IMG/VR virus record: IMGVR_UViG_3300030061_003600
Length of the DNA stretch: 64,000 nucleotides
Reading direction: 5' to 3' (one strand)
Source of the DNA: a virus
Notes under the pieces: generated by a model
The model's database searches: none
The model's input: only the letters and a program-made list of their open reading frames with translations
Told to the model about the DNA's origin: nothing
Program-made: the position numbers and the translations under genes
In this document: positions 9,842-62,201 of the stretch, piece after piece
Layout: each line of letters begins with the position of its first letter
Position numbering within the stretch: position 1 is the stretch's first letter

Positions 9842-12800
9842 TTGAGGAAGGAGGATATGTATGTGATTGGTAAATATGTGGCGAGAAATCCAAATTTTGT
9901 TTACGGAAATTGCAGTCCTTTCGCTGATACCACCAAAACTTACCCAAAAGATGGGCTTATACAAGGTCAATATGGAATAAATACTTCTTATTGGAAATCA
10001 CTTAAAAAAGTGGCTGACCAAAAAGGAAAACAAAAGACCGAATACTTTAAAGAAAGAATTTTAACAGGAAGCGGAGCCAAAGACCCTGATGTAAGAAAGT
10101 TGATGGATAGATTATTTAAACACCCTGTTTATGAAGATTTAGTAGATGCATTGGGTAATTTAATTAATTATAATGTTTTAAACAATACATTCCAATCAAT
10201 AGGTGAGAGAGGAAGCACCTTTGACAAAATAAATACAAACCTTAATTTTTCTTCACTTCCTTATGGTTTAGTTTCATCTATAAATACAGGAAACTACAAG
10301 CATTATGTAGATTATACCGGACAACTTTCAGTTACAGAGGTTAAGGAAATGATGATAGCACTTTCTCCGGTTAATCTTAATTTAAGTAATTCAACAGTAG
10401 AGCAGACAGGAAAGTATTTTCAATGCGTATTGAACTCGGATGAAAATACCATTAAGTTAGATTATAGAAAAAACTTTGCAAGGGGTTATATAAAAAATGA
10501 AAAAGTAAATTTAGACCTGCGAAGCACAGGAGAAGATTATAATTGCACACCCCTATCCTTACAATCTTCCATAGATGAATCTTATATGACAGGTGGGTAT
10601 GCCTATAATTTAGAAAAGATAAACGATGAATCAACTAAAATAAATATATCACCTATTTCGGATAAACAAAGTTGCACGGAGAGAGATTTGCAAAAGATTG
10701 AAAAACAAGCAGAATTTGTAAGTGATTTACCCAACAATGATAAATATGTAAAGGTTTCAGGTATAAAAGGAAAGGAATTATTAGATAATGTTATGCCTTT
10801 TAGTTGTTTGTCAAGAAATTTTTATGATAGTGCAAATCAAATTTTTAGTGAAAGCAAAGATGGTTTTAAAGCAATTTCTACAAGATTATATTTTGACAAA
10901 AGAAATGAGGTGTTTTTAAATGCCCGAAGTAATGATTTATTTTTTGCTTTATCCTGTGCAACATTTGGAGATATTAAAGAAGATGTAATAGATGTTTATT
11001 ATAACGAGTCAAAGGATGAAGCATATTTTGTAAATTCAAATAAAGAACAATATGGATATTGTAGAGGTTTAAATGCTTCATTGCTTTCTAATTGTGAGCA
11101 CATTATTTATGCAGAATTATATAAGCCATCTTTATCTATTCAGCAGAAAACTCAATTATTTGAGGAGCAGGATGTAAGACCGATAACTTTATCTAAAGAA
11201 ATAATAGATGAAGCAGAAAGTTTAGAGTCAGCAATTCAAAGACAGGCAAAACTACAAGACATTCAAGATGGAGAGATATTTTATAAACTCTTAATTAAAA
11301 ATATAACTGCATATGTTTATACTTATGCGGAGCAAATAAAGGTAAATGGTTCATTGGTGTGGAGAACACAAAAAAATCCAAAATGGTCATTAGATGCAAG
11401 TGAGGGTAATTGGTTTAAAAATCAAGATGGAAAGATGCAATGGTCTAATCCGGACAATTTTTATATCTATGATGTAAGAGAAACATTTTGGATGAACAAT
11501 CAGGATATGTCAATAAAAGAGGTGTTGGCATATTTTGTAACAAAAGGAGGAAGCAGTAAAGACAATTCATCTTATTACAGAAAACTTTGCCAAAGGATAT
11601 TAGGAATAGATTATTTCGTTTTTTCTAAAAAATTATTCCCAATACTTTTACAGGAAGGATATATATGCGTTGAGGAATTAGATATTTCGCCAAGTTCAGG
11701 AGAGGTAACAAACCGGAAATATAGTTATCGTTATGATTACACATCGGGAGATGTATATAAAAAATTAGAAGTTCTTGGGGGCAACCTTCAAGACAATATA
11801 AAAGCATTTTATGGAGAAAATAAAGGAAATCAAATTATAGATAATCAATTTTCTCTTCTTGATAATGCAAAACCTACACCCCTTTCTTTTGGAGATAAAA
11901 ACCCCGCATTAAATCTTGTAATTAATATACATAACCCTATTTTATTTAGAAGTAAAGATAGTTTTGTTGGTAGAATAGGTGAGGATTATGGTGTATTTAG
12001 AGATGGAAAAGTGAGAATTTCAACCGTGGAGCAGGGAGATAATATGTATAATCCTATAAAAGAAGGAGGAGGAGGAAGAAGTCAAATATATAAGTATTTT
12101 AGAGAGCAAAATCCATTGAACTTATCTAACAATCATTTAAAGAAATTTTATGAATGGATAATGTTTGGAAAAGGAGTGGATTTTATAAGTAATCCAATAA
12201 TAAAGAACAGAAAAGAGTTTTACTTAATTGAAGGATATGTTTTTCCTATTCCTTCATCAGAATTTATTACCAAGCACATACTTCCAAATTTTGAAAAGAT
12301 TGTAGATGAGGGAGATAATATACCTTGTCCTTTAGAGTTTTTGCCCCAACTTCAAAAAAATCAAAAAACATTTACTAAAGGAAATGTATATAAAAATAGT
12401 GACAGATTCCAATATAGTAACTTAACACAAGCAAGTAGAGAAAACTTAATTAAAATAGGATTAGTAGAGAAAAAACCAAAGAAGGCAGTAGAGGTAAAAA
12501 TAAAAGACCCTAAAGACCCGAAACAAACAATTACAAAAAAACAAATGTTTACTCCTATTACAGAGGAAGAGGGTAAAAGGATTTTTAATGTTATTTCAGA
12601 TAAATATAAGAAATTAGAAAGTGAGATAATAATTGAGGGTAATTCTTTATTTACTATTTTTTGTAAAACACAACTTAAACCTGATTACAGAATATATTTA
12701 GAAAAATTATGGAACTCTACATATAACAATATGGCGGTTGCTAATTATAAAAAGTTTCCTATTTTCTGTGAGCATTCAAGGTGGTTTGGCTCAATGCCAA

Positions 12801-15800
12801 AACCTTTTTTGTTTAATTTAAGAGATGCCCAAGTTGAGGGTATGAAGTTTTCGGTAGCAAACAAAAATTCAGGACTTTTGGCACACGAGGTTGGTTTTGG
12901 TAAAACAACCACATCTATTGCTATGATGTCCCATATGATATTAACCGGAGAAAGTAAAAGAACGATAGTATTTACTCCTAATCAGGTTTATGAAAAATTT
13001 GCAGATGAGATTATTGGGAGAGATACTACGGGCACATTAGGTCTATTAACAAATTGGCAAGTATTAGAAAAAGACAAAAGAGAAGGAAATAAAAGCCGAG
13101 TAGATATTATTAAGTTTGGAAATGCATCTACAACTATTTTATTTGGAACAAAAGATGTTGAGGGTCTTAAAGAATATAATCAAGATGAATTAGATATTAT
13201 AGCAAGGTGGAAGGGAAAAACTAAACCGAGAAAAGGAAAAGACACAAGAACTGAAGAAGAAAAAGGGGTGTTAGAGCAGGTTAGAAAACAACTATCTAAT
13301 TTACCCGCAGGGCGACCAACATTTTTACCTGAAGATAATCTTCCTGTCATTACTTATAGTGATGGTAGAGAAGAGGGTAGTAGGTTTTCAAAGACATTAA
13401 GAGAATCAGATGCAGGAAAATGGTTTGATTCTTTTAATTATTATCTTGGTTCAAAGATACCTGAACTTTACGATGATGAAAATGTATCTCAACTTGAGGC
13501 AATTGAAGGTGTTATTGATAAAGTACAAAGATTAATAGATTTTAATGTTGCAACAGTAGATAGTGAATATGAGAAATTTAAAACCGGATATAGATATAAT
13601 ATGCAAGATTTTACCGGAGAAAATAAATCTAAAATATCTACCTATCCACAATCAGTACAAGATTGGTGGAAGAAAGCAGACCCAAGAGCAAATAAAAACA
13701 CTCTAAATTATGCAATAGGTCAGAATTCTTATCCTCAAAAATCTTGGGTTAGCAATACCGATGATGCTTTAAAAGATGGGGTGATTACTAAAAGTCAATA
13801 TGACAGAATTAAAGCGGAAGAAAAATCTCTTCAACAAGAATGGGAGGGAACTTTATCCGAGTTGGGAATAAAGAAAATAAAACAACTTGAAAATAATCTT
13901 GGTAAAGTATTTTTTAATCCAACTGACAATAAAAATTCAGGAAAAGTTACCGTTCTATTGAAGCAAATAGAAGGGATGTTAATTGATATATTAGGCATAT
14001 ATAAACCGCAAGTATTAGCGGAAAATAGGATAATTTTATGTTCACATCAGGCAATTAAAAAGTTTAGGGCTTCTTCCGAAGCAAGAGATAAAGCCAAGAT
14101 GTATGTGCAAAATGTAGAAGATGTTCGGTATGTAAATCCAAGCACAAGTAGATTTTATGATAATCTTGCTAATCAACCACTTTCTTTTAGAAAATTAAAC
14201 ATTGATGGTATATGTGTAGATGAGATACACAATTTCAATAATTTAATAAGTAAGCCAAGAGAACATATGTTGTCTAATGTTTCTCCAAAACGATTAGGAA
14301 GAAGCAAGGCGGAGAAAGAGTTCCATTTACTTCCTACTATGTCAGCAAATGCTGCTCTTAAATTTTTACCCGATGGAGATAGTATTACATCTAATGTTGG
14401 TCTGTATATTCAAGAGGAAACACCATATCATCATCCAAACAAGAAAAATCTTAAAACAGAAAAATCGGGCAGTCAGAATGCTTACCGACTTAAATACTAT
14501 TCTTCAGGTAAGGGTAGTTTAACAAGTGGACCATCCAATCTAATGGCTTTAGTGTTCCAAATTCAAGAGAAAGAAAGCAATAAAGATGTTAATAATACAA
14601 TTTTAATGTCTGCAACCCCTTTCACGGATAACATTTTCCAAATGTTTTCAGTATTTGGTATGACTAATTTAGAAAAGATGAAAGAGAGCAACATTGCATC
14701 AGTATGGGAATTCTTTGTGACTTTTGTAAAAGAAGAATGGAGATATAACATTACACATAGGCAAACCTTCGGATTATTTCCGGAAATACAGAGTTATTAT
14801 AACACTTCAGCAATGGCGAACTTTATAAAGGCGATGGCTAATTTTAAGGTTTCCGATAAAATTATTGAAAGCACCCGACCTTTAAAATATCTTATACCAC
14901 AAGATGGTGCGGATAGTGGGTATCAAGCGGGAGCAAATACTTCATCTGTGGAATGGGCACCTGAACTTGCGGATGTGTCAAGTTATATTGAATTAAGTCC
15001 TGTTCAAACACAGATAATGAAAAAGATTTCAGAATATGTAGAAGGAAAGATAGATGTTCCTTTCCAATACTGCCCTAATTATGGAGAGGCAATACAAGTA
15101 AAGGAAGAAACCGGTGAGATAACATTTGTTAATGAGGAGGTTAAAGAAACGATTGAAGAAGTAGATGATATATTAAAAAGAGCAAAGAAAGAAGAAGAGT
15201 CAAGTAATGAGTGGAGTGAATTGCTTTTTGAGGCGAGAAGATTATTGGTTTCATTAAGAGAAGCATATCCTGAAGATGGAAGAATTGCACGAAAACAACA
15301 AAAGGTGGATAGGGCACTTTATGAGCCGGAGCAACTAAAAGAAATGAAAGAGGAGGAGTCCTTATATGATAGTAATTATGAGGACATTGATTTGACCGTA
15401 AATAGCAAGAATGAAGTTAGGTTAGCAAGAGCAATTGTTGGTCAATCTTTTGGGCAATTATGTGTGATTTCTCCTTATCTATTAAAATGTGATAAAGATG
15501 GAATAACTCCTAACGACCTACTAAAAGATTATCCTTTATATCCTGATGATAAATCTAAATCGGCAAAGAATTTTGTAGAGCAAAGTCCAAAAATTAAATA
15601 TGCCGTAGAGTGTGCAATAAACTCAATACTTTATGACTCTAAATCAGTTAGAAATGACCGGCAGGTTGGAGGTCAGATAATATACATTAATAAGGGTAAA
15701 AGTATGAAGTATGGCGGAAACTTTTATAATATATATGAACTTATACAAACTTATATAGCAGATAGAAAAATTAAGTATTATGACAATATAGAAGAGAAAG

Positions 15801-17212
15801 AAAAAATACTAACTAAAGAGCATATTGGTATTATTACGGGGGGTATGTCGGGAACAGTAAGTGCGACAGATAAGTACAATGAGGTCAAGATAGATAATAC
15901 GACTAATAAACCTAAAAAAATAGGTAAAAGAGAAGATATAAGAGATAAGTTTAATGATGGAAGAATAAAGATATTAATAGGTTCTTCGGCTATAAAAGAA
16001 GGAATAGACCTAAATAAAAGAGCCCATACTCTTTATGTATGTGATAGCGACTTTTCTCCTTCTAATGCAATGCAATTAGAGGGCAGAATATGGCGACAAG
16101 GAAATATGTGGGAGTTTGTCAGAATAGTATATGTGCTTGGGAGAGATAGTATTGATGCATTCGTTTATTCAAAACTCCAAACCAAGATAACAGAGATTAA
16201 AAAGATGTTAGAGCAGGGAGTATATGAAATGAATAAGACCCAATATACTATAAATGCAAAAGAAAGAATTAGAAATATAATTTCTGATATTGACCAATTG
16301 ACTGATTTGGCTTGGCAAGACCGGGTAGATGAATTAAACATAAAAGTTGCTAATTATTCAGATGAAAAGAGTAAACTTCAAACTATAAGAAAAAAATATG
16401 GAGAAGTAAAAATTTCTTTTGATAAATATGTATATATGATGAACCTTCTTTACAAATTGGTAATAGATAGAGAAAAAAGAATACTTGCGGATAAAGAAAA
16501 AACACAAATTGATATATTAAAACAATATGAGTGGCAAGTAAAAAGTAGAGGTAGGGGCAGGTTGTGGAGAGAGCAGAATAGGTTTGTTCCGGTTTCTATG
16601 GAGGAGGTATTGGAAATTATTGATAAGAAAATAGATAATAACGATATAGTTTTGGAAAACCAAGATATTCATCTAACCTCTTATTCAGATATGTCAGAAG
16701 TAAATGTCGTTGCAAATAAGGTTAGAAGAATGGTAAATGCACGAAAGGGCGAGATAAAAACCATTCTTTCTTTACCCCAAGACCAAAGAGATATGGAATT
16801 AAGAAATACTAATTCAGAATCAAGTTTAGGGAAACAGGTAGTTAAAGTTATTTTATATAATCAAAAGGATAAAAAGGGTTTTGTGTATGAATCTCTTGTT
16901 AAAAGAATAAATGAATTTGTTACCGGCTCTGAATATGAAAGTGTAATTACTAATTATAATTATCTAATAGAAAATAAGGGATATTCTATTGAAGATGCGG
17001 AACTATTAATTACTAAAGCAAATAACAAAATAGTAGAAGGTCAATCAGAATTAAATAGCGAAAAGAAGTGGAAGTCGGAAAGAAGAATAAAAGAGCAGGA
17101 AATTCAAGATGAAAACTCTAAAATGAGAGGAGATGACCTTGAAACATTGATAGAGAACTTTAAGAGGTCTATGTCATTATTAAAAATTAGAGTAAAAAAA
17201 GATAAAAAATGA
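9842..17212 (+). CDS. very large DarB-like SF2 (SNF2-type) helicase/translocase; true start may be upstream at 9770
   Basis: LLAHEVGFGKT (I), CVDEIHNFNNL (II), MSATPF (III), IGSSAIKEGIDL (V), QLEGRIWRQGN (VI), the motif style of P1 DarB-type proteins. Confidence 0.85.
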   Translation: MRKEDMYVIGKYVARNPNFVYGNCSPFADTTKTYPKDGLIQGQYGINTSYWKSLKKVADQKGKQKTEYFKERILTGSGAKDPDVRKLMDRLFKHPVYEDLVDALGNLINYNVLNNTFQSIGERGSTFDKINTNLNFSSLPYGLVSSINTGNYKHYVDYTGQLSVTEVKEMMIALSPVNLNLSNSTVEQTGKYFQCVLNSDENTIKLDYRKNFARGYIKNEKVNLDLRSTGEDYNCTPLSLQSSIDESYMTGGYAYNLEKINDESTKINISPISDKQSCTERDLQKIEKQAEFVSDLPNNDKYVKVSGIKGKELLDNVMPFSCLSRNFYDSANQIFSESKDGFKAISTRLYFDKRNEVFLNARSNDLFFALSCATFGDIKEDVIDVYYNESKDEAYFVNSNKEQYGYCRGLNASLLSNCEHIIYAELYKPSLSIQQKTQLFEEQDVRPITLSKEIIDEAESLESAIQRQAKLQDIQDGEIFYKLLIKNITAYVYTYAEQIKVNGSLVWRTQKNPKWSLDASEGNWFKNQDGKMQWSNPDNFYIYDVRETFWMNNQDMSIKEVLAYFVTKGGSSKDNSSYYRKLCQRILGIDYFVFSKKLFPILLQEGYICVEELDISPSSGEVTNRKYSYRYDYTSGDVYKKLEVLGGNLQDNIKAFYGENKGNQIIDNQFSLLDNAKPTPLSFGDKNPALNLVINIHNPILFRSKDSFVGRIGEDYGVFRDGKVRISTVEQGDNMYNPIKEGGGGRSQIYKYFREQNPLNLSNNHLKKFYEWIMFGKGVDFISNPIIKNRKEFYLIEGYVFPIPSSEFITKHILPNFEKIVDEGDNIPCPLEFLPQLQKNQKTFTKGNVYKNSDRFQYSNLTQASRENLIKIGLVEKKPKKAVEVKIKDPKDPKQTITKKQMFTPITEEEGKRIFNVISDKYKKLESEIIIEGNSLFTIFCKTQLKPDYRIYLEKLWNSTYNNMAVANYKKFPIFCEHSRWFGSMPKPFLFNLRDAQVEGMKFSVANKNSGLLAHEVGFGKTTTSIAMMSHMILTGESKRTIVFTPNQVYEKFADEIIGRDTTGTLGLLTNWQVLEKDKREGNKSRVDIIKFGNASTTILFGTKDVEGLKEYNQDELDIIARWKGKTKPRKGKDTRTEEEKGVLEQVRKQLSNLPAGRPTFLPEDNLPVITYSDGREEGSRFSKTLRESDAGKWFDSFNYYLGSKIPELYDDENVSQLEAIEGVIDKVQRLIDFNVATVDSEYEKFKTGYRYNMQDFTGENKSKISTYPQSVQDWWKKADPRANKNTLNYAIGQNSYPQKSWVSNTDDALKDGVITKSQYDRIKAEEKSLQQEWEGTLSELGIKKIKQLENNLGKVFFNPTDNKNSGKVTVLLKQIEGMLIDILGIYKPQVLAENRIILCSHQAIKKFRASSEARDKAKMYVQNVEDVRYVNPSTSRFYDNLANQPLSFRKLNIDGICVDEIHNFNNLISKPREHMLSNVSPKRLGRSKAEKEFHLLPTMSANAALKFLPDGDSITSNVGLYIQEETPYHHPNKKNLKTEKSGSQNAYRLKYYSSGKGSLTSGPSNLMALVFQIQEKESNKDVNNTILMSATPFTDNIFQMFSVFGMTNLEKMKESNIASVWEFFVTFVKEEWRYNITHRQTFGLFPEIQSYYNTSAMANFIKAMANFKVSDKIIESTRPLKYLIPQDGADSGYQAGANTSSVEWAPELADVSSYIELSPVQTQIMKKISEYVEGKIDVPFQYCPNYGEAIQVKEETGEITFVNEEVKETIEEVDDILKRAKKEEESSNEWSELLFEARRLLVSLREAYPEDGRIARKQQKVDRALYEPEQLKEMKEEESLYDSNYEDIDLTVNSKNEVRLARAIVGQSFGQLCVISPYLLKCDKDGITPNDLLKDYPLYPDDKSKSAKNFVEQSPKIKYAVECAINSILYDSKSVRNDRQVGGQIIYINKGKSMKYGGNFYNIYELIQTYIADRKIKYYDNIEEKEKILTKEHIGIITGGMSGTVSATDKYNEVKIDNTTNKPKKIGKREDIRDKFNDGRIKILIGSSAIKEGIDLNKRAHTLYVCDSDFSPSNAMQLEGRIWRQGNMWEFVRIVYVLGRDSIDAFVYSKLQTKITEIKKMLEQGVYEMNKTQYTINAKERIRNIISDIDQLTDLAWQDRVDELNIKVANYSDEKSKLQTIRKKYGEVKISFDKYVYMMNLLYKLVIDREKRILADKEKTQIDILKQYEWQVKSRGRGRLWREQNRFVPVSMEEVLEIIDKKIDNNDIVLENQDIHLTSYSDMSEVNVVANKVRRMVNARKGEIKTILSLPQDQRDMELRNTNSESSLGKQVVKVILYNQKDKKGFVYESLVKRINEFVTGSEYESVITNYNYLIENKGYSIEDAELLITKANNKIVEGQSELNSEKKWKSERRIKEQEIQDENSKMRGDDLETLIENFKRSMSLLKIRVKKDKK

Positions 17213-19461
17213 GAAAGTTTTTAGACACATTTCCTAATATAAAACTTCAGCAGTTATATACAGTATATCCTGATTATAATGTTTTTATTAACGAATTAAT
17301 TGAGTTAGATAAAAAGGTAAAAGAAGGTGTTTCGGTAGAGGTTGAAGAGCAATATGAATTACTTATGAATACTTTGGATGCCTTTTTATTTAGAGAAAGT
17401 AGCATTGAAAAGTTTAACAATGTATATACTAACCCTATACAACAAATTGATATATCATTGATACCACAACAAGGAGTATCATTGCCATTAGAAGAAAGAG
17501 AAGAAATAGAAGCAGATTTAGAAAGCGAGATAAAGGAGATGATGAAAGGAGTGGATAGTGATGTTGTTGAAGAAATAATGCAAGAAAACGAAGAACAAAA
17601 ACAAAAGATAATCGGAGAGGAAATGCCAATCCGAACAAGAGAAGATTTTGATGAAGAAGATAGGTTTGTGGGGATAAGTTGGAAATATGATACTTTCAAG
17701 CAAACTGAATTTGCCCTTGCTCTTGCTATGTTAAAGCAAGGTTGTAAATTTTATTATACTACATATGGGTCCAAGCATTTCGCAATGTTTAAGTTAAAGG
17801 GAATGGGTAGAATAATTATAGAAACATCAGAGGAAAGATATAGTTATGATAACTTATTTCAACCATCTAATAAAGAATTAAAAGTATTTATGCTTGATGA
17901 TAGTGGAAAATCATTGCAAACTATTTTCAATATATTCAAAGATGCTTGGGATATGGATGAGGATTCTTATTCCAAATTAGATGATGAATTTTTATTTAAT
18001 ACTCCATACATATATTCAGCATATCAAGAAGGTGTATTGTGGAAAGAGGCAGAATTGCTACAACAGTCAAGGGGTATTGTTGAAAGAGGAAGATGGCTCA
18101 ATGAGTATTTTTCATTATATGTTCCTTTAGAAAGAATATGCACATTACAGTTGTGTAAAGAGGTTCACCAAAACACAAGGGGAAGCGAGGCAGATGCAAA
18201 AGAAGTTATACAAAGAGATTTAAAGGAAAATACCTTTTATATAGAGGGTATTGGGGATGTAAATCATTCCTATGATATTTTAGAAAAATTACAAACTCAA
18301 AACCTATTAGATATAAATTATAAACCTACTCCACTTGCATCCGGATTGCTTTCTTACAATAGCGATAAAATTATGCCGCAGTTCAGACCATTTATGTATT
18401 ATATGAACAATTTGGGTGAAAATTTGAAAAAATCAAAAGAAACTTATTATTCCTCTTTTAATGGTCAAACAGTTTATCACACCAAAAAAGATGTTAAGGA
18501 TATAAAATTTGCTTTAGCAATTCCAAGTACGGACAGACAACTGATGGGTGTTGAGAATGCTATTCAGGCAGATTCTTTTCCTGTTAAATGGCAACAAGAA
18601 GAAGATTTTAAGAACTACCACGAGTATTTAACATTTGCTTCCGGAGGTAGTTTAAGTATTAGAAAAATGCACGAAGCCCGTGAGCAAAGAAAAGCAACAC
18701 AGGGTAAAATAATGTTTAGAGATTTAGACCGAAAAGAATTATATGTAGCAAGTACAGAAAGACCCGGCATAAATTACTGCATTAACGGACAAGATTATAG
18801 GTATATATGCTCAATGTACGGAGAGGATAATATACGAATTTTAGGAACACCCGATTCACCTTTTAGTAAGCCATCATTAGTATTTTTTATGATAGTAGAT
18901 GCCAAAAACAACTTATTAGCAGTATTGTCTGCACTTGGCTCACAGGCACAACCGGCAACTAAAATGGTGGAAACAAGAAAGGGGGTTTGGGAGGAACAAG
19001 ATAGACAGATTTCTCCACGAATTCCAATAGATATGCAAGAAAAGATTTTGAATCAAAGGGAGGAAATACAATTAGATATTCTTGCAAGTTGGATAACCCT
19101 ATCTTCAAGAAATTACCCAAAAGAAATTTGGGATATGCAGAGTGCCGTAGAAGAGGTAGAAAAAACTGCACCTGTTCTAACATTAGAGGGAAAAATGATA
19201 GGTGAAAAAGAAGATATAGACACGAGTAATGAAGAGGAAATAAAAACAGATGAGGCGGAAAAAAGGGAAGATATAATTATAGATTTTGACAACCCTGAAG
19301 AGCCAATCGTTTTAGTAGAAGATGAGAAAACAATTAAATTAAAAGAACTAAATGAAGAGTTACTTGACCTGCAAGATTATATAGAGGAGATAGGAAATGA
19401 CCCGGATGCAGAAAAAGAAATTGAAGAAATAAAACAAAATATAGAAGCATTAAAACAATAA
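17209..19461 (+). CDS. large hypothetical protein (750 aa) with acidic ends
   Basis: Long ORF overlapping the helicase stop; one FASGG; no family recognised. Confidence 0.75.
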   Translation: MRKFLDTFPNIKLQQLYTVYPDYNVFINELIELDKKVKEGVSVEVEEQYELLMNTLDAFLFRESSIEKFNNVYTNPIQQIDISLIPQQGVSLPLEEREEIEADLESEIKEMMKGVDSDVVEEIMQENEEQKQKIIGEEMPIRTREDFDEEDRFVGISWKYDTFKQTEFALALAMLKQGCKFYYTTYGSKHFAMFKLKGMGRIIIETSEERYSYDNLFQPSNKELKVFMLDDSGKSLQTIFNIFKDAWDMDEDSYSKLDDEFLFNTPYIYSAYQEGVLWKEAELLQQSRGIVERGRWLNEYFSLYVPLERICTLQLCKEVHQNTRGSEADAKEVIQRDLKENTFYIEGIGDVNHSYDILEKLQTQNLLDINYKPTPLASGLLSYNSDKIMPQFRPFMYYMNNLGENLKKSKETYYSSFNGQTVYHTKKDVKDIKFALAIPSTDRQLMGVENAIQADSFPVKWQQEEDFKNYHEYLTFASGGSLSIRKMHEAREQRKATQGKIMFRDLDRKELYVASTERPGINYCINGQDYRYICSMYGEDNIRILGTPDSPFSKPSLVFFMIVDAKNNLLAVLSALGSQAQPATKMVETRKGVWEEQDRQISPRIPIDMQEKILNQREEIQLDILASWITLSSRNYPKEIWDMQSAVEEVEKTAPVLTLEGKMIGEKEDIDTSNEEEIKTDEAEKREDIIIDFDNPEEPIVLVEDEKTIKLKELNEELLDLQDYIEEIGNDPDAEKEIEEIKQNIEALKQ

Positions 19462-19464: not shown

Positions 19465-22400
19465 ATGGAGGAATATAAAGGTAAAACAATTGAGGAGTTA
19501 AGCGAGTTATTAGATGATTTGCAAGAGCAACAAGAGGTTTTGATTGATGACCTTGATGACCCGGATTTAAAAGAGGCATATGATAGTAATGAAGCCGAAA
19601 TTGCAAGAATAAAATCTGCTATGGGGACAACAGTTGGTAGTGTAGAGCAAGATTTAGAGTATAGAGAAGAAATGGATGCTATGGAAAAAGAGATAGATGA
19701 AAAAGATGAAACCTTTGTAGTTACGGAAAAAGAAGTTAAAAATTCTGATTTAGAAAATAGTAAATTCTCCGATATTAAAATAGATAAAAGCATCTTTTTT
19801 GGAGATGGTGGAAAAACAAAAACAGGAATTATGAAAAATATAGATTTAGACACTTACCATAAAATGCGTAATGCAGAATTTAATAAAGAAGTGAAAGCGG
19901 GAAGAATGGAAGATACTGATGAAAATTGGGAAAGATTTGATGAGGAGTATTTTGAGGAACTTTATGCTAAAGGATATACGATAGAAATGGCAAAAGGTGG
20001 TGCAATTTATAAGGGACATAAAGTAAAGATAAAGGATAGCGGTAAAACAATGAAGGTTACTGATGTATCTAAAAACAAAAAAGACCAAGTAGAGTTTTCA
20101 GGAGATGAAGGAACATACTTGATTGGAGATATTGAAAAAATGGAAAAAGGTGGTAAGGTTTTTAAGGCACCTAAAGGTTGGAGAAAAACAAAACAAGATG
20201 AAGGAGAAAAAACTTATAAGCATAAAGATGGAAGAGAAATTATAGTATCTGATAGTATGGTGGGAACCCCATCTTTTGAGGTAATATGGGAAATAGAAAA
20301 ATCTTACAATTGGGAAGATTGGAAAACAAAAAAGTTTCCGATGAACAAAGAGGGCACTAAAAAAATGGAAGAATTTTTGACAAAACTAATGAGTAGTTCT
20401 TATGCAAAAGGTGGTAAGATTGAAATTACATCTGCACCCGACTATCATAAGGTAAGAAATAAGGAGTATGATAAAAGAGTAAGAGAGGGAAAAATCAAAG
20501 ATACTGATGAAAATTTTGAAAAATTTGATGATGAGTATTTTAATGAATTAGTCAAAAAAGGTAAAATTGATATGGACAATTATTTCGCAAAAGGTGGTAA
20601 AACTGATGATGTAATTATGATTAAAATAGGTGGGGATAAAAAATACCCATATTATATTAAGAAGATTGACACTACACATATGTCTATGGCTAACAATAAA
20701 GATGGAGTTGATTTAGTTGTTCCATCTCATATTTTGCAACACAAAGGAGAAAGTTATTATGATGATGTTCGTTCTTGGTTAAAAGGAGGGCAAAGTCCTA
20801 ATGGAAAATCTTATGATAGTGATTATTACGCTAAAGGTGGTGAAGTAGACAAAGAATACATAATTAGAGTTTACGAAAATCAACAAGATTACGAATTTGA
20901 TGAAAACTATGATAATGTTTATTTAGATGATAAAGCACCAAGCAAAAAAAGAGCCATTAGGAAAGCCCGAGAAATAGAAAATAATAAAGGTAAAAAAGAT
21001 ACTTGGGTAAGAGTAATAGATAATGCATCACAATACAATGATGAAATATATTCTACTACATTTCCTCAAGGTTTTGAAAAAGGTGGAGAAGTAAAATGGG
21101 ATTTTAGTGAAGAAGAAGTTATAGATGGTGCTAATAATTTAGCATCTGCACTAACGCTTATAGATGGAAAATTATTTCAGGTACACGATTTTGAATATGA
21201 CAAAGGTAAAGGTGCCGGTTTTGAACTATCAATAGATGATGAAAAATATGCAGGAGGAAGTTATTATATTGATGCAGATGGCACAATGATAAATGCGGCT
21301 ATGAGTGGTGCTCCTTATGGTAATATAAAAGATAGTAAAAGGGAGTTAATAAAAGCATCTAAATCATTTGCAAAAGGTGGAGAAACTGCTACCGATTATT
21401 CAGGAGAATATAGAGATTTAAGAACTTTTGTAATGAGAAATGGTTTGCGAGAAGCAATGGGTAAAAAATATGGCTTTGAGGCAAAAGATTATGAAGATTA
21501 TGTAAGAGGAGAGTTGGGATATGATACTGAAGTTATACAAGAATTAGCAGGAGATAGATATAAAGTTGAGTATATAGAGAGATACGATGAAGCAACAGGA
21601 AGGAGAGATAAAGATGGAGAAGGAGTTATTATTGTAAGCAAATCATTTGCAAAAGGTGGTATGACAGGATTTAATAAGTTTTTTGATAAATTCAAAAGAA
21701 GTGATGCTTATATATCTGAACCAAGGAAAACTGCTAAAGGAAATTACATAGTAGAAGTAGAGCCACACGATAAAGAAACATCTAAACAAATGAAAGATTA
21801 TATGCAAAGTGAAGGTATAGGATATAGTCCTAAACCTATGGGTAAAGGTTTTTATACTCAATTTGCAAAAGGTGGAGAAACTGAAAAAGGTTATTTAGTT
21901 CTTTTATATGCAGGTTCATATCAATTTAAGAACTCATCAGAGTCAAATATATATTTAAATACTTTGGTTGATGCAATAGAATATGCCAAAAAAGAAATGC
22001 GAAAACAAAGAAATTATCGTTCATCAACGGATAAAATGTGGGCAGTAATTAAAGGAGAAGGGCAAGATATAAGAATAACTGAAGATGATGTTAAAGATTA
22101 TTATGAAAAAGGTGGTCCTATCAAAAGAGGAAGTGGAGCAAGAATGAGTATTGATTTTATAAAAGAAACAAGAAAAGTTGGTGATTTTGTAAGGGTTGAA
22201 ACTGATATTTTGGGAAAAGAAGAATTAACAGGAGAAATTGAGAGTTTCAGTCCTTTAAAAATAAGAACAGATGAAACATCAGTTGTAGTAATTCCTAATG
22301 AGTCCATCAAATATCTTACAGACCCAAGTCCTTTCAACTATGCAAAAGGTGGAGAAATTAGTATAGAGGGAAATCCTTATAAAAATGAAGATTTTTTCAT

Positions 22401-24051
22401 ATATAGAAATGGAAAAGAAGTAGCAAGTTGGAATGTAGATGAAATGGCAGAAGATGAAGATGTAGAAGATTTAGCCAAAGAAATGTTTTATTTGTGGAAA
22501 AATGATGAAGAAGAATTAGGAAAAAGATTAGATAGAATAAGTTATGCAAAAGGTGGTAGTATAGAAAAAGAATTAGAGGGTTATCAGGGAATGTATGATT
22601 ATGCGATAGCCAACAATTTTACACCAAGCCAATTAGCAGATGAATTAGAATTTACAACAGGTTTAAAAGATGAAAGAGATAAAAAGTTTTATGCTCATCT
22701 TAAAAATTTAACTCGTATGTTTCCTGATAAACCCCTTTCTGAATTTGCAAAAGGTGGTGTAACTAAAGGGCAAACATTAGCCGAAAATTTTAATAGGAAA
22801 GATGAAGTTAAAAATGTGGAATTTTGGAAAAATGATGTCATAGTTAAAGATAAAGATGGAAAAGCAGTAAGAATAGATTTGGATAAAGGAGAAAGAATAG
22901 AGTTAAATGCAAAAGGAGGAGAAACTGCTTCACCAATAACTAATTATCATAGAACTATAATGGGGACATTAGGGTTTGATTTGAAAGTTAAAGGAATGAG
23001 AAAAGCACAAGATTTTATTGTATATCCTATTGTTGCAAAAACAGATACTATAAGAATTCAAAGTGATAAAAAATGGGGAGAGATACATATTAATACAGGA
23101 AAAGGAATTTTAAGCAAGTCAGGAAGCACGAGTTGGCATTTACACGCTGATATGATGAATATGAATGTCATTAAGTTTGAATTAACACCCGAAGAATTGG
23201 AAGAATTAAAAAAACAAATAAAATCTACTTCAGGAAAAGATGTAGGTAATACTATTATGAGAACTGATAATAGCGGAGCAGCACTTCTTGAGCACGGAGG
23301 AGAAATTGATTTAAATGAGGTTGATATATATGAAGCGGATGAAAATGGAAATTTTACGGTTGTGATTGATGGAGATGTCTTTGATATGAATTATCATACT
23401 ATGCCTAATATGAGTGTTAATATGTATGCAGGAAGTCGTTCAGAATATCCTTCAGACATTAGTCATTGGGGTAAAAAAATAACATTTGAAGATGCACCTC
23501 AAGTTATAAAAGATAAAATAGGAAAGAGAATAGAGGAATTCCATACGCATTTAGATAAGGGAGGTAAAATCAAGGAAGATAAAAGAAAGTGGTCACATCA
23601 TATGTGGTTCACAAATGAAAAACCGGGTGACACTTATTATTATGAAGATGCCGTAATAGATTATTTGATAGATAATCCACGAACTTTTAAGTTAGATATA
23701 AATAGAAGAGCCCTAAATAAGCCGGGTAAATTATCTGAAGTTTATAAAGATATGGGAATAAGCACAAGTAGTGGATATTTAAATCCTCAAGATATAAAGC
23801 AGTTTGCTATTGATAATGAGAAATACGATTGGTTAAAGATAGAAGGAGATAGAGGTTCTGACTCAAGAAAAAGAACGATTAAAAAGTATTTAGATAGAAG
23901 AAAAAAATATGCAGAATATGCAGAGGGTTTATCAAGAGAAGAATTATTAGAGCAAATTGAAATGTTAAATACGATGGCTTGGGAAGAAAAGGATAATGAA
24001 ATGAGGTCAGAAATGTTAGCAGAAGTAAATAAAATGAGAACACAACTATAA
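19465..24051 (+). CDS. modular protein of about 18 small domains separated by 17 [YFM][AE]KGG-type motifs
   Basis: Motifs in order: FGDGG, MAKGG, MEKGG, YAKGG, FAKGG, YAKGG, FEKGG, FAKGG x3, YEKGG, YAKGG x2, FAKGG, NAKGG, LEHGG, LDKGG. Confidence 0.85.
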   Translation: MEEYKGKTIEELSELLDDLQEQQEVLIDDLDDPDLKEAYDSNEAEIARIKSAMGTTVGSVEQDLEYREEMDAMEKEIDEKDETFVVTEKEVKNSDLENSKFSDIKIDKSIFFGDGGKTKTGIMKNIDLDTYHKMRNAEFNKEVKAGRMEDTDENWERFDEEYFEELYAKGYTIEMAKGGAIYKGHKVKIKDSGKTMKVTDVSKNKKDQVEFSGDEGTYLIGDIEKMEKGGKVFKAPKGWRKTKQDEGEKTYKHKDGREIIVSDSMVGTPSFEVIWEIEKSYNWEDWKTKKFPMNKEGTKKMEEFLTKLMSSSYAKGGKIEITSAPDYHKVRNKEYDKRVREGKIKDTDENFEKFDDEYFNELVKKGKIDMDNYFAKGGKTDDVIMIKIGGDKKYPYYIKKIDTTHMSMANNKDGVDLVVPSHILQHKGESYYDDVRSWLKGGQSPNGKSYDSDYYAKGGEVDKEYIIRVYENQQDYEFDENYDNVYLDDKAPSKKRAIRKAREIENNKGKKDTWVRVIDNASQYNDEIYSTTFPQGFEKGGEVKWDFSEEEVIDGANNLASALTLIDGKLFQVHDFEYDKGKGAGFELSIDDEKYAGGSYYIDADGTMINAAMSGAPYGNIKDSKRELIKASKSFAKGGETATDYSGEYRDLRTFVMRNGLREAMGKKYGFEAKDYEDYVRGELGYDTEVIQELAGDRYKVEYIERYDEATGRRDKDGEGVIIVSKSFAKGGMTGFNKFFDKFKRSDAYISEPRKTAKGNYIVEVEPHDKETSKQMKDYMQSEGIGYSPKPMGKGFYTQFAKGGETEKGYLVLLYAGSYQFKNSSESNIYLNTLVDAIEYAKKEMRKQRNYRSSTDKMWAVIKGEGQDIRITEDDVKDYYEKGGPIKRGSGARMSIDFIKETRKVGDFVRVETDILGKEELTGEIESFSPLKIRTDETSVVVIPNESIKYLTDPSPFNYAKGGEISIEGNPYKNEDFFIYRNGKEVASWNVDEMAEDEDVEDLAKEMFYLWKNDEEELGKRLDRISYAKGGSIEKELEGYQGMYDYAIANNFTPSQLADELEFTTGLKDERDKKFYAHLKNLTRMFPDKPLSEFAKGGVTKGQTLAENFNRKDEVKNVEFWKNDVIVKDKDGKAVRIDLDKGERIELNAKGGETASPITNYHRTIMGTLGFDLKVKGMRKAQDFIVYPIVAKTDTIRIQSDKKWGEIHINTGKGILSKSGSTSWHLHADMMNMNVIKFELTPEELEELKKQIKSTSGKDVGNTIMRTDNSGAALLEHGGEIDLNEVDIYEADENGNFTVVIDGDVFDMNYHTMPNMSVNMYAGSRSEYPSDISHWGKKITFEDAPQVIKDKIGKRIEEFHTHLDKGGKIKEDKRKWSHHMWFTNEKPGDTYYYEDAVIDYLIDNPRTFKLDINRRALNKPGKLSEVYKDMGISTSSGYLNPQDIKQFAIDNEKYDWLKIEGDRGSDSRKRTIKKYLDRRKKYAEYAEGLSREELLEQIEMLNTMAWEEKDNEMRSEMLAEVNKMRTQL
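19993..22760 (+). repeat. dispersed in-frame repeat AAAGGTGG (core of WWTGCAAAAGGTGG), 13 consecutive motif copies
   Basis: Motifs 2-14 of the 1528-aa ORF all use AAA GGT GGN; spacing about 150-300 nt. Confidence 0.85.
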
Positions 24052-24060: not shown

Positions 24061-26289
24061 ATGAGCATAGAAGAGAATAGAAAAAAAGAAATGGGTTTTC
24101 CTAAAAATCCTGACAATATAACTAAAGATGAACTTCACGAACATTTTGATTTAAATAATGATGGTAAAGTTAATATAGAAGAGTATGCTGAACATATTAA
24201 TTATCATTGTGAAAACCCTGATGTTTTAGAGGATGAAATGCAACAAGCAGATTTTGAACGAGGTTTTAAATATGCAGAGGGTGGAAAGGTAGAAAAATAT
24301 ATAATTGTAAGGGGTACTAAATATGGTGAAAAGTATTATTACCAAAAGGGTACTAATGAACATAACAACAAATGGTTAAGAACTAAAAAAGGGGCTACTA
24401 TTTTTACTGACATTAAAGAAGCAGAAAAATATGCTGATGAATCCGATGGAGATATAGAAAATTTAACTACCTATGCAAAAGGTGGAGAGGTAGAGATATT
24501 TAGTTATTACTTTGATGTTGATAAAGTAAAAAGCATAGAAAATGTAGAAGTATTTACAAATCAAAGAAAAGGACATAAGAATTATGTGAGAGTAGATTAT
24601 ATTCAGTTGTCTAAACCCCAAACTATGCAAGTTGATTTTAGAAAAATACCATTTGATACACAAGAGGAATTAACCTACATTAAAAAAACTTTACGAGATA
24701 ATTTCGGCTCTACCTATGCAAAAGGTGGTAAAACTAAAAAAGCCAAAACTTGGAAAGAAAAGTATAATAAAAAGTATGGTAATGATTTAGATGCATCAAA
24801 TTCTTTATCAGACATTGCAGAAGATACAGGAGTTTCAAAAAAAGGAATACAAAAGATATATAATAAAGGTATTGGGGCATATAAAACAAACCCCTCAAGT
24901 GTTAGACCTAATGTTAAGTCAAAAGAGCAATGGGCTCAAGCAAGAGTTTATAGTGCAGTAATGGGAGGCAACGCAGCCAAAGTAGATGCTAAAGAGTTAA
25001 AAATGGAAAAAGGTGGAGCATTAAAAAAAGAGTTTAAATTTGACAAAAATTTTGTAATATATGTTCCTTCTACTACTGATGTTGGAGAAAAAATATCTAA
25101 AAAAGAATTAGAAAAGAGGGTTCAAGAAGTAGAAAAATATGTAGCCAATGAATTTGGAGGATATACTGAAACAGAAACCGATGGAGGGTATAAATCAACT
25201 TCAGGAGAGATAATAGAGGAAGATATTGTTAAAGTATCAGTATTTGCTAATAATAAAGATTGGAAAAATAACGAAAACAAAGTTGTAAAGAAAGTAAAAG
25301 AATGGTCTAAAAAATGGGGTCAGGAAGCCATAGGATTTGAATTTGAAGGAGATTTATATTATATAGATGCAGATGGAAAGTTTGGATGGGGAGGAACTAT
25401 ACTTGGTGCTCTTGTCGGGGGGTATGCAGGATATAAGATAGGAAGGGCAAGACCCCAAAAGAAAGGATTTGACACCGAAAAGAAATTAATTAATAGAGCC
25501 AAAAACACAAGATGGGACAAAGATGGCGGCATAAGGTATGCAAAAGGAGGAGAAATGATGAAAGGAATTAGAACACCTAAAATAGTAGAGTTTGAAGATG
25601 GTGGAGAAGTTGATTTATTTGAGCATTATGAAAAACTGCCAACTAAATCAAAAATTATTGTTGATTATTATATGCAAAAGTATGAAGATGGAGATTACGA
25701 TTATAGTGATAGTAAAAAGTTCCTTGAAGAAATGGAAAAAACCGGATATACTTTTGAATATGGGTTAGATAATGAGCCATATGATTTAAGAAAAATGAAA
25801 ATAGGCGGGGCATTAGAATTAGTACACGCATATGATGATGATGGCTCCTTATTTGGAACAGGACATATAGAAAAAGTAGAAGGCGGAAAGACCTATGTTA
25901 GATTTGATAGCCAAAAGGTTAAGGCATTTGATAATGACAAAGTTAAGCCCGTAATGGCAAAGGGTGGATTAACACCTGCCAAAGCAAAGAAAATGTTAGA
26001 TGATGGAATGGCTCAAGGAAAGCCGCTTACTGATAGGCAAAAAAGATATTTTGGGGCAATATCGCAAGGAAAAGCAGATAAAGCAAGAGAAAAATCAAGT
26101 ATGAAGAGGGGAGGAAAAACAAAATCTATAAATTATAAAAAGAAAGATTATGGTTTAGATTATTTATATAATCAATTAAAAATTAGTCGTGAACTTTTAG
26201 ATAGAGCAACAACTACTGATGAAAAAGATATTCTTTCATTAAGATTGAAAAGCATACAAAAGGTAATTGATAATACATTGAGAATATGA
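24061..26289 (+). CDS. second GG-motif modular protein with N-terminal EF-hand
   Basis: EF-hand loop DLNNDGKVNIEE; motifs YAEGG, YAKGG x3, MEKGG, FEDGG, MKIGG, MAKGG, MKRGG. Confidence 0.8.
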   Translation: MSIEENRKKEMGFPKNPDNITKDELHEHFDLNNDGKVNIEEYAEHINYHCENPDVLEDEMQQADFERGFKYAEGGKVEKYIIVRGTKYGEKYYYQKGTNEHNNKWLRTKKGATIFTDIKEAEKYADESDGDIENLTTYAKGGEVEIFSYYFDVDKVKSIENVEVFTNQRKGHKNYVRVDYIQLSKPQTMQVDFRKIPFDTQEELTYIKKTLRDNFGSTYAKGGKTKKAKTWKEKYNKKYGNDLDASNSLSDIAEDTGVSKKGIQKIYNKGIGAYKTNPSSVRPNVKSKEQWAQARVYSAVMGGNAAKVDAKELKMEKGGALKKEFKFDKNFVIYVPSTTDVGEKISKKELEKRVQEVEKYVANEFGGYTETETDGGYKSTSGEIIEEDIVKVSVFANNKDWKNNENKVVKKVKEWSKKWGQEAIGFEFEGDLYYIDADGKFGWGGTILGALVGGYAGYKIGRARPQKKGFDTEKKLINRAKNTRWDKDGGIRYAKGGEMMKGIRTPKIVEFEDGGEVDLFEHYEKLPTKSKIIVDYYMQKYEDGDYDYSDSKKFLEEMEKTGYTFEYGLDNEPYDLRKMKIGGALELVHAYDDDGSLFGTGHIEKVEGGKTYVRFDSQKVKAFDNDKVKPVMAKGGLTPAKAKKMLDDGMAQGKPLTDRQKRYFGAISQGKADKAREKSSMKRGGKTKSINYKKKDYGLDYLYNQLKISRELLDRATTTDEKDILSLRLKSIQKVIDNTLRI

Positions 26290-28472: not shown

Positions 28473-28500
28473 TAATAAAAATAATAATAACCCGATAGTT

Positions 28501-29136
28501 ATGAAAAATGATAAGTACCATTGGATTTTAGATGCAGGGCACGGAGGTTTAGACCCCAAAAGCGGAGAGTATCAAACACGGGGAAAAAGAAGCCCTATGT
28601 TTCCACCCACAAGTGAATATGGAGGAAAAGTTTTATATGAAGGTGTGCGAAATAGGCAAGTTTTAAAATGCCTTAAAGAATTGTTAGATGAAAATAATTA
28701 TGAATATAGTGTTGTTTCAGATGAGTGGAAAGACAATACTTTAAGTGATAGAGTAGCAAGAGCAAATAAAATAGCAGAAACAAAAGAGAATTGCATATAT
28801 GTATCTATACATCATAATGCATATGGTAAAGGATGGAACAATGCTCACGGAATATCCACATATCATTTTCCTAAATCTGAAAAAGGTTTTAGATTGGCGG
28901 GAGTATTTAATAGTCAAATAGTAGAAGAAATGGGTTGGAGAAATAGAGGTGTTAAAAGTGCAAACTTTTATGTTCTAAAATATACAAAAATGCCATCTGT
29001 TTTAACTGAAAACGGATTTATGACCAACCTTAAAGAAGCCGAAGTATTAATGAGTGATGAAGGAAGTTATAAACTTTCATTAGCACATTTTGAGGCAATT
29101 AAGGAGATAAATGACAGAGGATTAAATTTTTTATAA
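28501..29136 (+). CDS. N-acetylmuramoyl-L-alanine amidase (Amidase_3), probable endolysin
   Basis: ILDAGHGG, YEGVRN, VSIHHNA, VLTENGFMTN; ATG at 28501 preferred over the 28396 extension overlapping PAP2. Confidence 0.9.
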   Translation: MKNDKYHWILDAGHGGLDPKSGEYQTRGKRSPMFPPTSEYGGKVLYEGVRNRQVLKCLKELLDENNYEYSVVSDEWKDNTLSDRVARANKIAETKENCIYVSIHHNAYGKGWNNAHGISTYHFPKSEKGFRLAGVFNSQIVEEMGWRNRGVKSANFYVLKYTKMPSVLTENGFMTNLKEAEVLMSDEGSYKLSLAHFEAIKEINDRGLNFL

Positions 29137-61112: not shown

Positions 61113-62201
61113 ATGGCTGAAAACAAAAAATGGATAGCAGCAGTAAATGCAGAAATGAAAAAGAAGGGAACAGTAGGTTCTTTTACTAAACAAGCCAAAA
61201 GAGCAGGAATGTCTGTTCACGATTTTGCTATGAAAGTAAAGGAGAATCCTGAAGATTATTCTAAAAAAACACACGAAAGAGCAGGTTTGGCTTTAACTTT
61301 TGAGAAAATGGCTAAAGATAGAAAGTATGCAGCAGGTGGAAAAACTCAAGGATATAATGATAAGTTAGATGAAGATTTAGGAACAAGATTAGGTAGAGAG
61401 AGAGGTTATAAACAATCATTAAAAGACCGTAGAGATGAAAGTAAAGCAGGAAATAAAACTCTTGGTCGTAGAGCATATGCAAGTGTAGATACTATGGATA
61501 AAGGAGATAGAATGTTTATGCACGGAGGAAAAACTAAAATGATGCACGGAGGTTTTACAGAAGATTACACATTAAAATTCAAAAGAGATACAGATGTTAG
61601 AATTGTAGGTGAAGATGGAAATGTAGTTGATGTTGAAAATTATAAAAAAGGTGACCAAGAAAAAGTAGATATATTATCTTCTGATGGTAAATTTTTAATG
61701 GTACAATTTCAAGATGGTTATGTAGGTCATATCAATAAAGAAGATGTGCAAGACCAAATGTATATGCACGGAGGCAAAACGCAAGGTTATGCCGATGAGC
61801 AAGATGAGAGTTTAGGAATGAGAACAGGAGCAGAATCTACTAAAAAACAAAGTATGAAAGCCCGTAGAGATGATTCTTACGGAAAGTGGGGTAAAAGAGA
61901 TATGGAAGATAGAGATATTACTATGGCACGAGGTGGGTCTGTAAAAGGAAAAATTGATAGAGATAGATATGTAAAACTGCGAAGAGATAAAGACAAAGAA
62001 ATTGCTAAACTAAAGAAAGAAAAAGGTGCTTTAAGAAAAGCAACTATCACTAAAGAAAAATGTGATGACAAAATTGAAACTCGTTTAGAGGGAGAGTCAA
62101 ATGCAATAAAATTGAAAGAGTCAAGTGGAGATACCAACCAAACTTTACTTATTGGAGGTGTAGCCGGAATTTTATTTGGAGCATTCTTAATTGGAAGATA
62201 A
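61113..62201 (+). CDS. third GG-motif modular protein, with C-terminal TM
   Basis: YAAGG, FMHGG, MMHGG, YMHGG, MARGG; two related GGKTQGY modules. Confidence 0.75.
   Translation: MAENKKWIAAVNAEMKKKGTVGSFTKQAKRAGMSVHDFAMKVKENPEDYSKKTHERAGLALTFEKMAKDRKYAAGGKTQGYNDKLDEDLGTRLGRERGYKQSLKDRRDESKAGNKTLGRRAYASVDTMDKGDRMFMHGGKTKMMHGGFTEDYTLKFKRDTDVRIVGEDGNVVDVENYKKGDQEKVDILSSDGKFLMVQFQDGYVGHINKEDVQDQMYMHGGKTQGYADEQDESLGMRTGAESTKKQSMKARRDDSYGKWGKRDMEDRDITMARGGSVKGKIDRDRYVKLRRDKDKEIAKLKKEKGALRKATITKEKCDDKIETRLEGESNAIKLKESSGDTNQTLLIGGVAGILFGAFLIGR

Follow-up and report, generated by a model that had tools for sequence, protein, structure and literature searches.

Does a short stretch of coding DNA that recurs along one long open reading frame (ORF) serve only the encoded protein, or does it also act as a site at which parts of the gene are exchanged? 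The question is raised by a plus-strand ORF of 1528 amino acids (aa) in a 64,000-nucleotide (nt) stretch of the IMG/VR virus record IMGVR_UViG_3300030061_003600, referred to here as the window. This ORF, modular gene 1, encodes the protein P0001 and is divided by 13 consecutive K-G-G motifs. An initial annotation of the sequence had proposed that the motif is conserved at the DNA level and that protein modules are gained, lost or shuffled by recombination at it, giving an integron-like array of protein domains. We find that codon choice at the motif departs from the background, that homology of the gene between relatives mostly ends at the motif, and that whole cassettes have moved between genes and genomes. 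The genes and gene parts concerned are as follows.

19465..24051, plus strand: modular gene 1 (P0001, 1528 aa), in which about 14 cassettes lie in an array between conserved N-terminal and C-terminal regions; defined by ORF and translation
19993..22757, plus strand: 13 consecutive junctions AAA GGT GGN, encoding [YFM][AE]KGG, in frame in ORF 19465-24051
20002..22920, plus strand: variable cassette array of gene 1, whose module content and order vary among relatives
20782..20790, plus strand: internal WLKGG, written AAA GGA GGG, inside one module and not a junction
22921..24051, plus strand: conserved, collinear C-terminal region of gene 1, with degenerate GGA junctions EHGG and DKGG
24061..26289, plus strand: modular gene 2 (P0002, 742 aa), with junction 8-mers at 24478, 24721 and 25009
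62204..64000, plus strand: modular gene 3, running past the window end, with junction 8-mers at 62717, 62969, 63200, 63629 and 63860

Silent-site conservation at the junctions

The junctions of gene 1 start at 19993, 20146, 20407, 20590, 20833, 21079, 21373, 21652, 21868, 22108, 22345, 22549 and 22750. All spacings among them are multiples of three, each junction reads K-G-G, and the junction peptide recurs every 50-100 residues between modules. The underlying 8-mer, AAAGGTGG, has 24 exact matches in the window, all on the plus strand, against 2.76 expected and a maximum of 8 in shuffled sequence. Three of its sites fall outside the in-frame motif, where about 2.8 are expected, so the 8-mer shows no enrichment there; a Chi-like role of GGTGG was considered. 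Seven of the 13 gene-1 matches are enclosed in the 14-mer WWTGCAAAAGGTGG, which has 12 copies window-wide, and GCAAAAGGTGG occurs 14 times. What the initial annotation had read from the letters is borne out by these positions: an unbroken run of 13 AAA GGT GGN motifs, often within a longer repeat, three further 8-mers near 24480-25013, five more in 62204-64000, and a non-motif WLKGG that uses AAA GGA GGG. The run ends at 13, and the next junction-like sites of gene 1 (NAKGG at 22912, EHGG at 23296 and DKGG at 23560) use GGA.

Base frequencies at 23 junctions give the DNA consensus T[AT]T GCA AAA GGT GG, with conservation only from -3 to +10. The element is 11-14 nt long and asymmetric, without inverted repeats, a second arm or flanking conservation, and the in-register identity between pairs of junctions has a median of 10 and a maximum of 23 bases.

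Across 59 ORFs, Gly is encoded by GGA 819 times, by GGT 495 times, by GGG 128 times and by GGC 93 times, in agreement with the earlier estimate, made by eye, that GGA is the commoner codon nearby. The first Gly of the [AE]KGG junctions in the modular genes departs from this background, being GGT in 21 of 23 cases against 32% (binomial 6e-9); in the remaining Gly-Gly pairs GGT takes the first position in 32 of 173 (18%; Fisher 6e-12). Among the two Gly codons of the junction the bias is confined to the first, the second being unbiased (GGT in 11 of 23). The junction Ala is GCA in 17 of 19 cases (p 0.005) and the junction Lys is AAA in 22 of 23. Away from the motif, AAA-Gly uses GGT in 23 of 83 cases, and 31% of the non-motif Gly codons within the modular genes are GGT. 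Each of six relatives has the same GGT bias at its junctions (10-13 of 12-16 sites, against a background of 30-45%), including those of a lineage about 70% identical to the window (L001-L003).

P0001 has no Pfam match at E <= 0.01 and no PHROG family, and the sole Pfam match of P0002 is that of one module to DUF5824. The Pfam KGG repeat, a motif family of stress proteins, had no match in an hmmscan of P0001 and P0002. The window ORF 2439-3026 begins MSAKGG, written AAA GGA GGA; homology searches with this ORF and with the P0001 C-terminal region gave no usable lead.

Cassette breakpoints and a second lineage

A word-indexed search returned 23 homologues of P0001, all KGG-rich and matching small fractions of P0001 at high identity. 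When 25 proteins were cut after each [KRH]GG and the pieces clustered, they proved to draw on a common pool of modules in differing numbers and orders. P0007 and P0008 are one 82-aa module apart, P0018 and P0019 differ in one module, and in P0009 a module is placed elsewhere. The 64-aa and 17-aa pieces that flank the internal WLKGG remain together in 9 of 9 proteins with that module. When the variable part of P0001 was used as the query of a full HMMER search, the family grew to 264 clusters at 50% identity, most of which have just one or two modules in common; the proteins span 58-1725 aa, and some are stand-alone small proteins.

Six relatives (L001-L006) are syntenic with the window, carrying in order a helicase, an ORF of about 720-750 aa, modular gene 1 and modular gene 2. 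Their flanks are 99.2% (L005), 94-95% (L004 and L006) and 66-72% (L001-L003) identical to those of the window. The array at 20002..22920 has only patchy DNA homology to L004, L005 and L006 between flanks that are 94-99% identical, and the region 22921..24051 is 94-99% identical to L004-L006 and 73% identical to L001-L003. Despite the 99.2% identity of their flanks, the window and L005 are separated by 5-6 cassette events in gene 1. The cassettes that they have in common are 91% to 100% identical and, because their identities are spread in this way, have separate histories. Cassette turnover is fast relative to point change. The comparison of module order among related contigs that had been suggested as a check therefore came out in favour of exchange, with sets and orders that differ and breakpoints at the motif. 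Neither of the two outcomes named beforehand as refuting the proposal, a codon choice equal to the background or a module order identical among relatives with breakpoints elsewhere, was seen. In L005 (10001-14430, on a low-coverage long-read contig) the 72-aa module is the last part of gene 1, and separate ORFs hold the conserved C-terminal part; this could be a sequencing error or a genuine split.

Breakpoints were taken from pairwise blastn of gene 1, as the distinct ends of blocks of at least 88% identity and at least 150 nt. The homology ends within -12 to +20 nt of a junction Lys codon in 68 of 74 cases, against 7.9 on average and at most 21 under random placement. One of the few homology ends away from a KGG motif lies at P0001 residues 634-641, where P0004 and P0013 have 'YEKSL' in place of 'FAKGG', the Gly-Gly is lost and two modules are fused. 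Three cassettes of the window could be followed individually, at single-nucleotide resolution.

21645..21888, plus strand: cassette with a 72-aa module, exchanged between diverged genomes and 95% identical to L001-L003
24486..24728, plus strand: 243-nt gene-2 cassette, missing from the 99.6% identical L005 gene and flanked by a 19-nt direct repeat
62963..63207, plus strand: gene-3 cassette, present in gene 1 of the near-identical L005 and 99.2% identical to L005 11444-11688

Homology of the first cassette begins and ends within its two junction motifs, in genomes whose flanking genes are 66-72% identical to those of the window. At the second, the 19-nt repeat is the overlap of the homology blocks and ends in GCAAAAGGTGG. 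The L005 copy of the third is inserted at the gene-1 junction that matches window position 21079, with 9-10 nt shared on each side, and the two genes are about 40 kb apart. Two further events were resolved among the relatives. A 246-nt module present in L001 is missing in L002, and both of its ends, as well as the single junction of L002, read TGCAAAAGGTGGA, a 13-nt direct repeat. The segment 736-968 of L001 is found with 100% identity but moved position at 1558-1790 of L003, its homology stopping inside motifs. All junctions are seamless, with neither duplicated nor partial linkers. The proposed gain, loss and shuffling of modules by recombination at the repeat is thus supported by the clustering of homology ends, by indels and by moves. 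A duplicated segment of about 82% DNA identity is shared by the N-terminal region of P0001 (19465-20001) and a 61-aa module (20410-20592); it occupies gene positions 419-495 and 1007-1083, as traced through matches to near-identical relatives.

One module, P0001 residues 541-636, connects these genes to a second, independent lineage. About 55 of its homologues sit in proteins without KGG junctions that are likewise arrays, with modules joined by E-S-V-(V)-[TN]-E (L016 7165-10287, L018 754-2955 and L017 2565-5399). A contig of this lineage carries DNA polymerase B, a RecA/UvsX-like protein and DnaB. In L016 the junction DNA reads GAA TCA GTT ACT GA, and the junction Ser is TCA in 8 of 9 cases against a background of 28%. 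L016 and L018, with flanks 99.7% identical, differ by three module indels at which homology ends in the E-type motif. Because the second lineage shows both the silent-site and the breakpoint effect, these effects are independent of the GGT codon and of Gly. When the homologues of module 541-636 are aligned, KGG and E-type junctions occupy equivalent positions on both sides of the domain.

Other searches delimited the family. A tblastn search of 50,697 isolated phages with P0001 and a stand-alone module homologue gave no match, and a back-translated peptide scan of IMG/VR found no relative. When IMG/VR was scanned for a DNA pattern of two spaced 11-mer copies, nine contigs were returned, mostly encoding other basic proteins with [MY]AKGG repeats, and their arrays are not clearly the same as those of the window. 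Six unrelated viral contigs from IMG/VR (L008, L009, L010, L012, L014 and L015), two of them at about 50% G+C, repeat [MY]AKGG via GCAAAAGGTGG; the peptide motif may extend beyond this lineage, but it was the DNA pattern itself that selected these contigs.

Proposed polyproteins and alternative explanations

An AlphaFold2 model of P0001 residues 525-655, built from a 55-sequence alignment, predicts a helix, five-strand, helix domain at 541-636 with a predicted local distance difference test score (pLDDT) of about 90. The domain is bounded exactly by two KGG motifs, and outside it the pLDDT falls below 50. For the modelled module, neither the PDB nor BFVD contained a significant structural neighbour. 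The model indicates that the modules are autonomous, and the same modules are also found as stand-alone small proteins.

Clues to the role of the modules come from the second lineage. Its N-termini, such as MKHIQTFESINE-A and MKKIKLPNEFVNE-A, resemble the leader of T4 IpII/IpIII (from AF158101). A 10-residue leader sends the internal proteins of T4 to the capsid, and the prohead proteases of T4-type and giant phages cleave after Glu behind a short motif (PMC9026906, PMC3012670); the E-type junctions fit the T4-type rule of cleavage after Glu (PMC9026906). T4-like leaders are confined to the second lineage, and P0001, which starts MEEYKGK... and reaches its first junction at residue 177, has no T4-type N-terminal leader. 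By analogy with the second lineage, with the T4 internal proteins and with the DarB-like neighbour of gene 1 (see below), we regard the linker peptide as a probable protease site and the modules as proteins probably delivered by the capsid; cleavage after GG, packaging and injection of the modules and the functions of the modules are what we infer on this basis. Several small multi-module relatives (P0030, P0034, P0056, P0130, P0145 and P0150) have a leader of 5-16 aa that ends in a junction motif, which could either serve as a propeptide or give the first cassette a recombination site at its 5' end.

We consider it likely that genes 19465-24051, 24061-26289 and 62204-64000 encode polyproteins of capsid-delivered modules in which the linker, probably a protease site, doubles as a short-homology recombination site. 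Small self-folding modules would be split by [YF][AE]KGG, and the 11-14 nt of linker DNA (T[AT]T GCA AAA GGT GG) would act as an in-frame site of exchange. A crossover or template switch between two linkers would delete, insert, move or swap a whole module, and each such exchange would restore an intact linker and the reading frame. Linkers that retain the consensus DNA would go on recombining, and identity at silent sites would be upheld because only junctions that keep the consensus keep taking part. In the protein, the linker would be cleaved by a phage maturation protease, and the modules would be packaged in the capsid, injected with the DNA and act early, for example in anti-defence. A Pfam and PHROG scan of about 45 window ORFs of at least 150 aa found no candidate for a protease or a recombinase. 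We take short-homology recombination or template switching to be the most likely mechanism, given a short, asymmetric site, the lack of a recombinase among the scanned ORFs, and a second lineage that uses an unrelated sequence. That DNA identity drives the crossovers we infer from the conservation of silent sites.

Several observations weigh against this proposal. The relatives compared for breakpoints are non-independent samples, and the position of breakpoints is no proof of DNA-driven crossovers, because selection alone could yield breakpoints at domain borders. Identity at the resolved events is short (9-19 nt), no recombinase stands among the scanned ORFs, and the junction at 22912 uses GGA and still forms the border between the variable and constant parts of the gene. 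The exact P0001 protein is present on 11 marine metagenome contigs, including a Tara Oceans contig of 103,022 nt; the array is thus not reshuffled in each generation. On the protein side, no protease gene was found in the window, and the low pLDDT of the linkers may partly reflect heterogeneous flanks in the alignment.

Breakpoints at the junctions could also arise by selection only, if recombination were random and illegitimate, the recombinants at domain boundaries survived, and the silent-site bias were unrelated. Autonomous domains would indeed favour junction-located recombinants, and breakpoint position by itself cannot distinguish such a process from one driven by DNA. What selection leaves unexplained is the 21 of 23 GGT codons beside an unbiased second Gly, the same bias at about 70% identity, where silent sites should be saturated, the silent-site conservation of a different motif in the second lineage, and the seamlessness of the junctions; we regard this account as unlikely. 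The bias itself might instead be translational, with GGT avoiding the Shine-Dalgarno-like AAAGGAGG that AAA GGA GG would give, or suiting a transfer RNA (tRNA) or codon pair. The leaders of the window genes, however, are A-rich and without a Shine-Dalgarno sequence, AAAGGAGG occurs in frame within ORFs six times, GGA-GGN makes up the majority of the non-motif Gly-Gly pairs, AAA-GGT is not favoured away from the motif, no tRNA genes were found in the window, and the Gly-less motif of the second lineage has the same effect. On the evidence of the leaders, the tRNA search, the counts of AAAGGAGG and the AAA-Gly counts, all three translational effects (Shine-Dalgarno avoidance, tRNA and codon pair) were rejected, and a translational origin is very improbable. 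A dedicated enzyme, either a site-specific recombinase or a nicking or homing nuclease that recognises GCAAAAGGTGG, would turn the arrays into a true integron-like system. In favour of such an enzyme, the 11-nt core shows high specificity and lies on a single strand, most window ORFs have no assigned function, and about 40 kb of the genome lies beyond the window. Nevertheless, no integrase, recombinase or nuclease family appears among the scanned ORFs, the site is short, asymmetric and free of inverted repeats and flanking conservation, and the same behaviour of an unrelated sequence in the second lineage is better fitted by a generic homology process. We judge such an enzyme to be quite improbable.

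A further objection, that the mosaicism is an artefact of metagenome assembly, has in its favour that every relative is a metagenomic contig. The repeats of 11-19 nt are below assembler k-mer length, the structures recur across short-read and long-read assemblies and across samples, gene 2 is identical between L002 and L003, and one P0001 sequence is shared by 11 contigs; there is hardly any likelihood left for this explanation. A different kind of alternative concerns the protein, in which the linker may be an uncleaved hinge or spacer, the whole working as a multidomain 'polyvalent' protein. Polyvalent phage proteins can enter whole (PMC5512222), the window yielded no protease, and the module pair fused without GG in P0004 and P0013 ('YEKSL' versus 'FAKGG' in P0001) would fit this picture. 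Against it, the linker aligns with the protease-site-like junctions, of T4 type, of the second lineage, many small relatives begin with a leader of 5-16 aa that ends in the motif, and peptide conservation reaches [YFMW]-A-K-G-G-[KES]-[VIT] in 148 diverse proteins. An uncleaved linker is possible, if rather doubtful.

Beyond this locus, short-homology exchange of polyprotein modules may be an instance of a general and hitherto undescribed means by which tailed phages assemble and diversify what they inject, 'in-ORF integrons': polyproteins of dozens of small effector domains in which the codons of protease sites are fixed at silent positions as recombination sites, and in which lineages have converged on this design with different motifs (K-G-G and E-S-V-T-E). 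Any cassette could be cut out, pasted or brought in, whether the genes lie 40 kb apart or the phages are only 70% identical, and every exchange would keep the frame and leave a cleavage site that works. We rate the chances of this generalisation as even. If exchange at the linkers operates as proposed, the locus offers a nucleotide-resolved case in which selection or molecular drive on silent positions keeps a coding linker recombinogenic, and evolvability is thus built into a gene. A single query also opens a large pool of small phage modules, function unassigned, in 264 clusters at 50% identity; since the modules are probably delivered at infection, they are candidates for anti-defence functions. 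The two junction motifs provide a simple rule by which giant ORFs can be split into testable units, and the design offers itself as a template for engineering phage-delivered protein cargo in plug-and-play fashion.

Genome context and relation to known systems

The window is part of a marine phage genome of about 100 kb and looks like the genome of a tailed phage. Its large ORFs are on the plus strand throughout, its G+C content is about 31%, and it codes for an endolysin, methyltransferases and a DarB-like SNF2 helicase protein of 2456 aa (Pfam, PHROG); the majority of its ORFs are without known function. Two neighbours bear on the modular genes.

9842..19461, plus strand: DarB-like SNF2 helicase protein (2456 aa) plus a 750-aa ORF; Pfam Helicase_C, ResIII and SNF2, PHROG DarB-like antirestriction
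61113..62201, plus strand: related ORF with variant junctions YAAGG, MHGG (three times) and ARGG, and a C-terminal transmembrane helix

The pair at 9842..19461 precedes gene 1 in syntenic order in 6 of 6 relatives. ORF 61113-62201 contains one module twice ('GGKTQGY..DE.LG.R'), and its transmembrane C-terminus resembles the C-termini of the small relatives P0034, P0049 and P0109. Elsewhere in the window, an ORF for a PAP2-family phosphatase overlaps the start of the Amidase_3 endolysin ORF (27504-29136), a pair that is kept in L003 and L006. ORF 57066-58436 carries the Cys-rich repeat 'CTYDIGGC(I/T)D' three times and has a Gly-rich tail; the ORFs around it (38 to 60 kb), which may encode tail or fibre proteins, are Gly- and Cys-rich and match no family.

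Gain, loss and shuffling of small units, mediated by short conserved flanks, are known from the PeSL cassettes of phage hyperplastic regions (PMC2839356), a system that its authors explicitly liken to integrons (Arbiol et al. 2010, PMC2839356). At the T-even internal protein (IP) loci, as later papers relate them (Repoila et al. 1994, via PMC2839356 and PMC12373910), the cargo consists of capsid-packaged injected proteins with a conserved leader. The genes described here share with both systems the indels and replacements of units at repeats between near-identical genomes (window and L005; L016 and L018). In those systems, however, the units are whole ORFs and the repeats are intergenic promoter or stem-loop elements of about 70-100 bp, whereas here domains within one ORF are exchanged and the repeat consists of 11-14 coding nt in one frame. 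The glycine-rich motifs of gp38 and the conserved motifs of gp37 have been proposed as crossover sites between variable segments (Trojet et al. 2011, PMC3157838, citing Tetart et al. 1998). As in T-even gp38, short conserved motifs within the gene part variable segments; in gp38 a single domain has these motifs as its structural core, and its variable loops are fixed in order and number, while the segments here are autonomous domains of varying number, order and location.

Like integrons, the modular genes are ordered arrays of exchangeable cassettes that have a common site and move between arrays, and variable arrays with breakpoints at a shared site were found. Unlike integron cassettes, these are not separate genes and are expressed by translational fusion. 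No IntI-type integrase was present among the scanned ORFs, and neither attI nor a structured attC was found, the only conserved stretch over the 23 junctions being that from -3 to +10. The description 'integron-like' in the initial annotation thus holds for the functional logic only, and the system is not an integron by membership. In bacteria, the MARTX and CdiA/Rhs polymorphic toxins have effector domains arrayed or swapped in frame at conserved peptide motifs, and MARTX effectors are freed by proteolysis between domains. These are secreted toxins, usually with one terminal cassette or a few effectors and with long flanking homology.

T4 IpI-III are diverse injected anti-restriction proteins, and T4 head proteins are processed by the prohead protease (PMC9026906, PMC3012670, PMC12373910). 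The second lineage, which shares modules with that of the window, has T4-like leaders and Glu-ending junctions, and this analogy suggests a shared logic of packaging, cleavage and injection. The window lineage differs in having K-G-G rather than x-x-E and many effector modules per polypeptide, where T4 has one per gene. Polyvalent proteins are very large, mosaic multidomain proteins that are delivered with the DNA and occur beside DarB-like helicases (Iyer et al. 2017, PMC5512222). P0001 and its relatives resemble them in their many unrelated domains, their variable architectures (25 proteins, 264 clusters) and the adjoining DarB-like helicase, and the relative P0025 carries RelA_SpoT and Eco57I domains. 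The catalogued domains of polyvalent proteins (MPTase, LPD families, ART and others) are unmatched in P0001 (Pfam, E <= 0.01), and the paper that describes them (PMC5512222) does not mention a KGG-type linker or conservation of junctions at the DNA level. A literature search on the AKGG/YAKGG linker and DUF5824 found nothing relevant. Cassette shuffling in phages is therefore known; what is new is that the cassettes are domains within an ORF, joined by a coding linker constrained at its silent sites, and that they hop between genes and between distant genomes.

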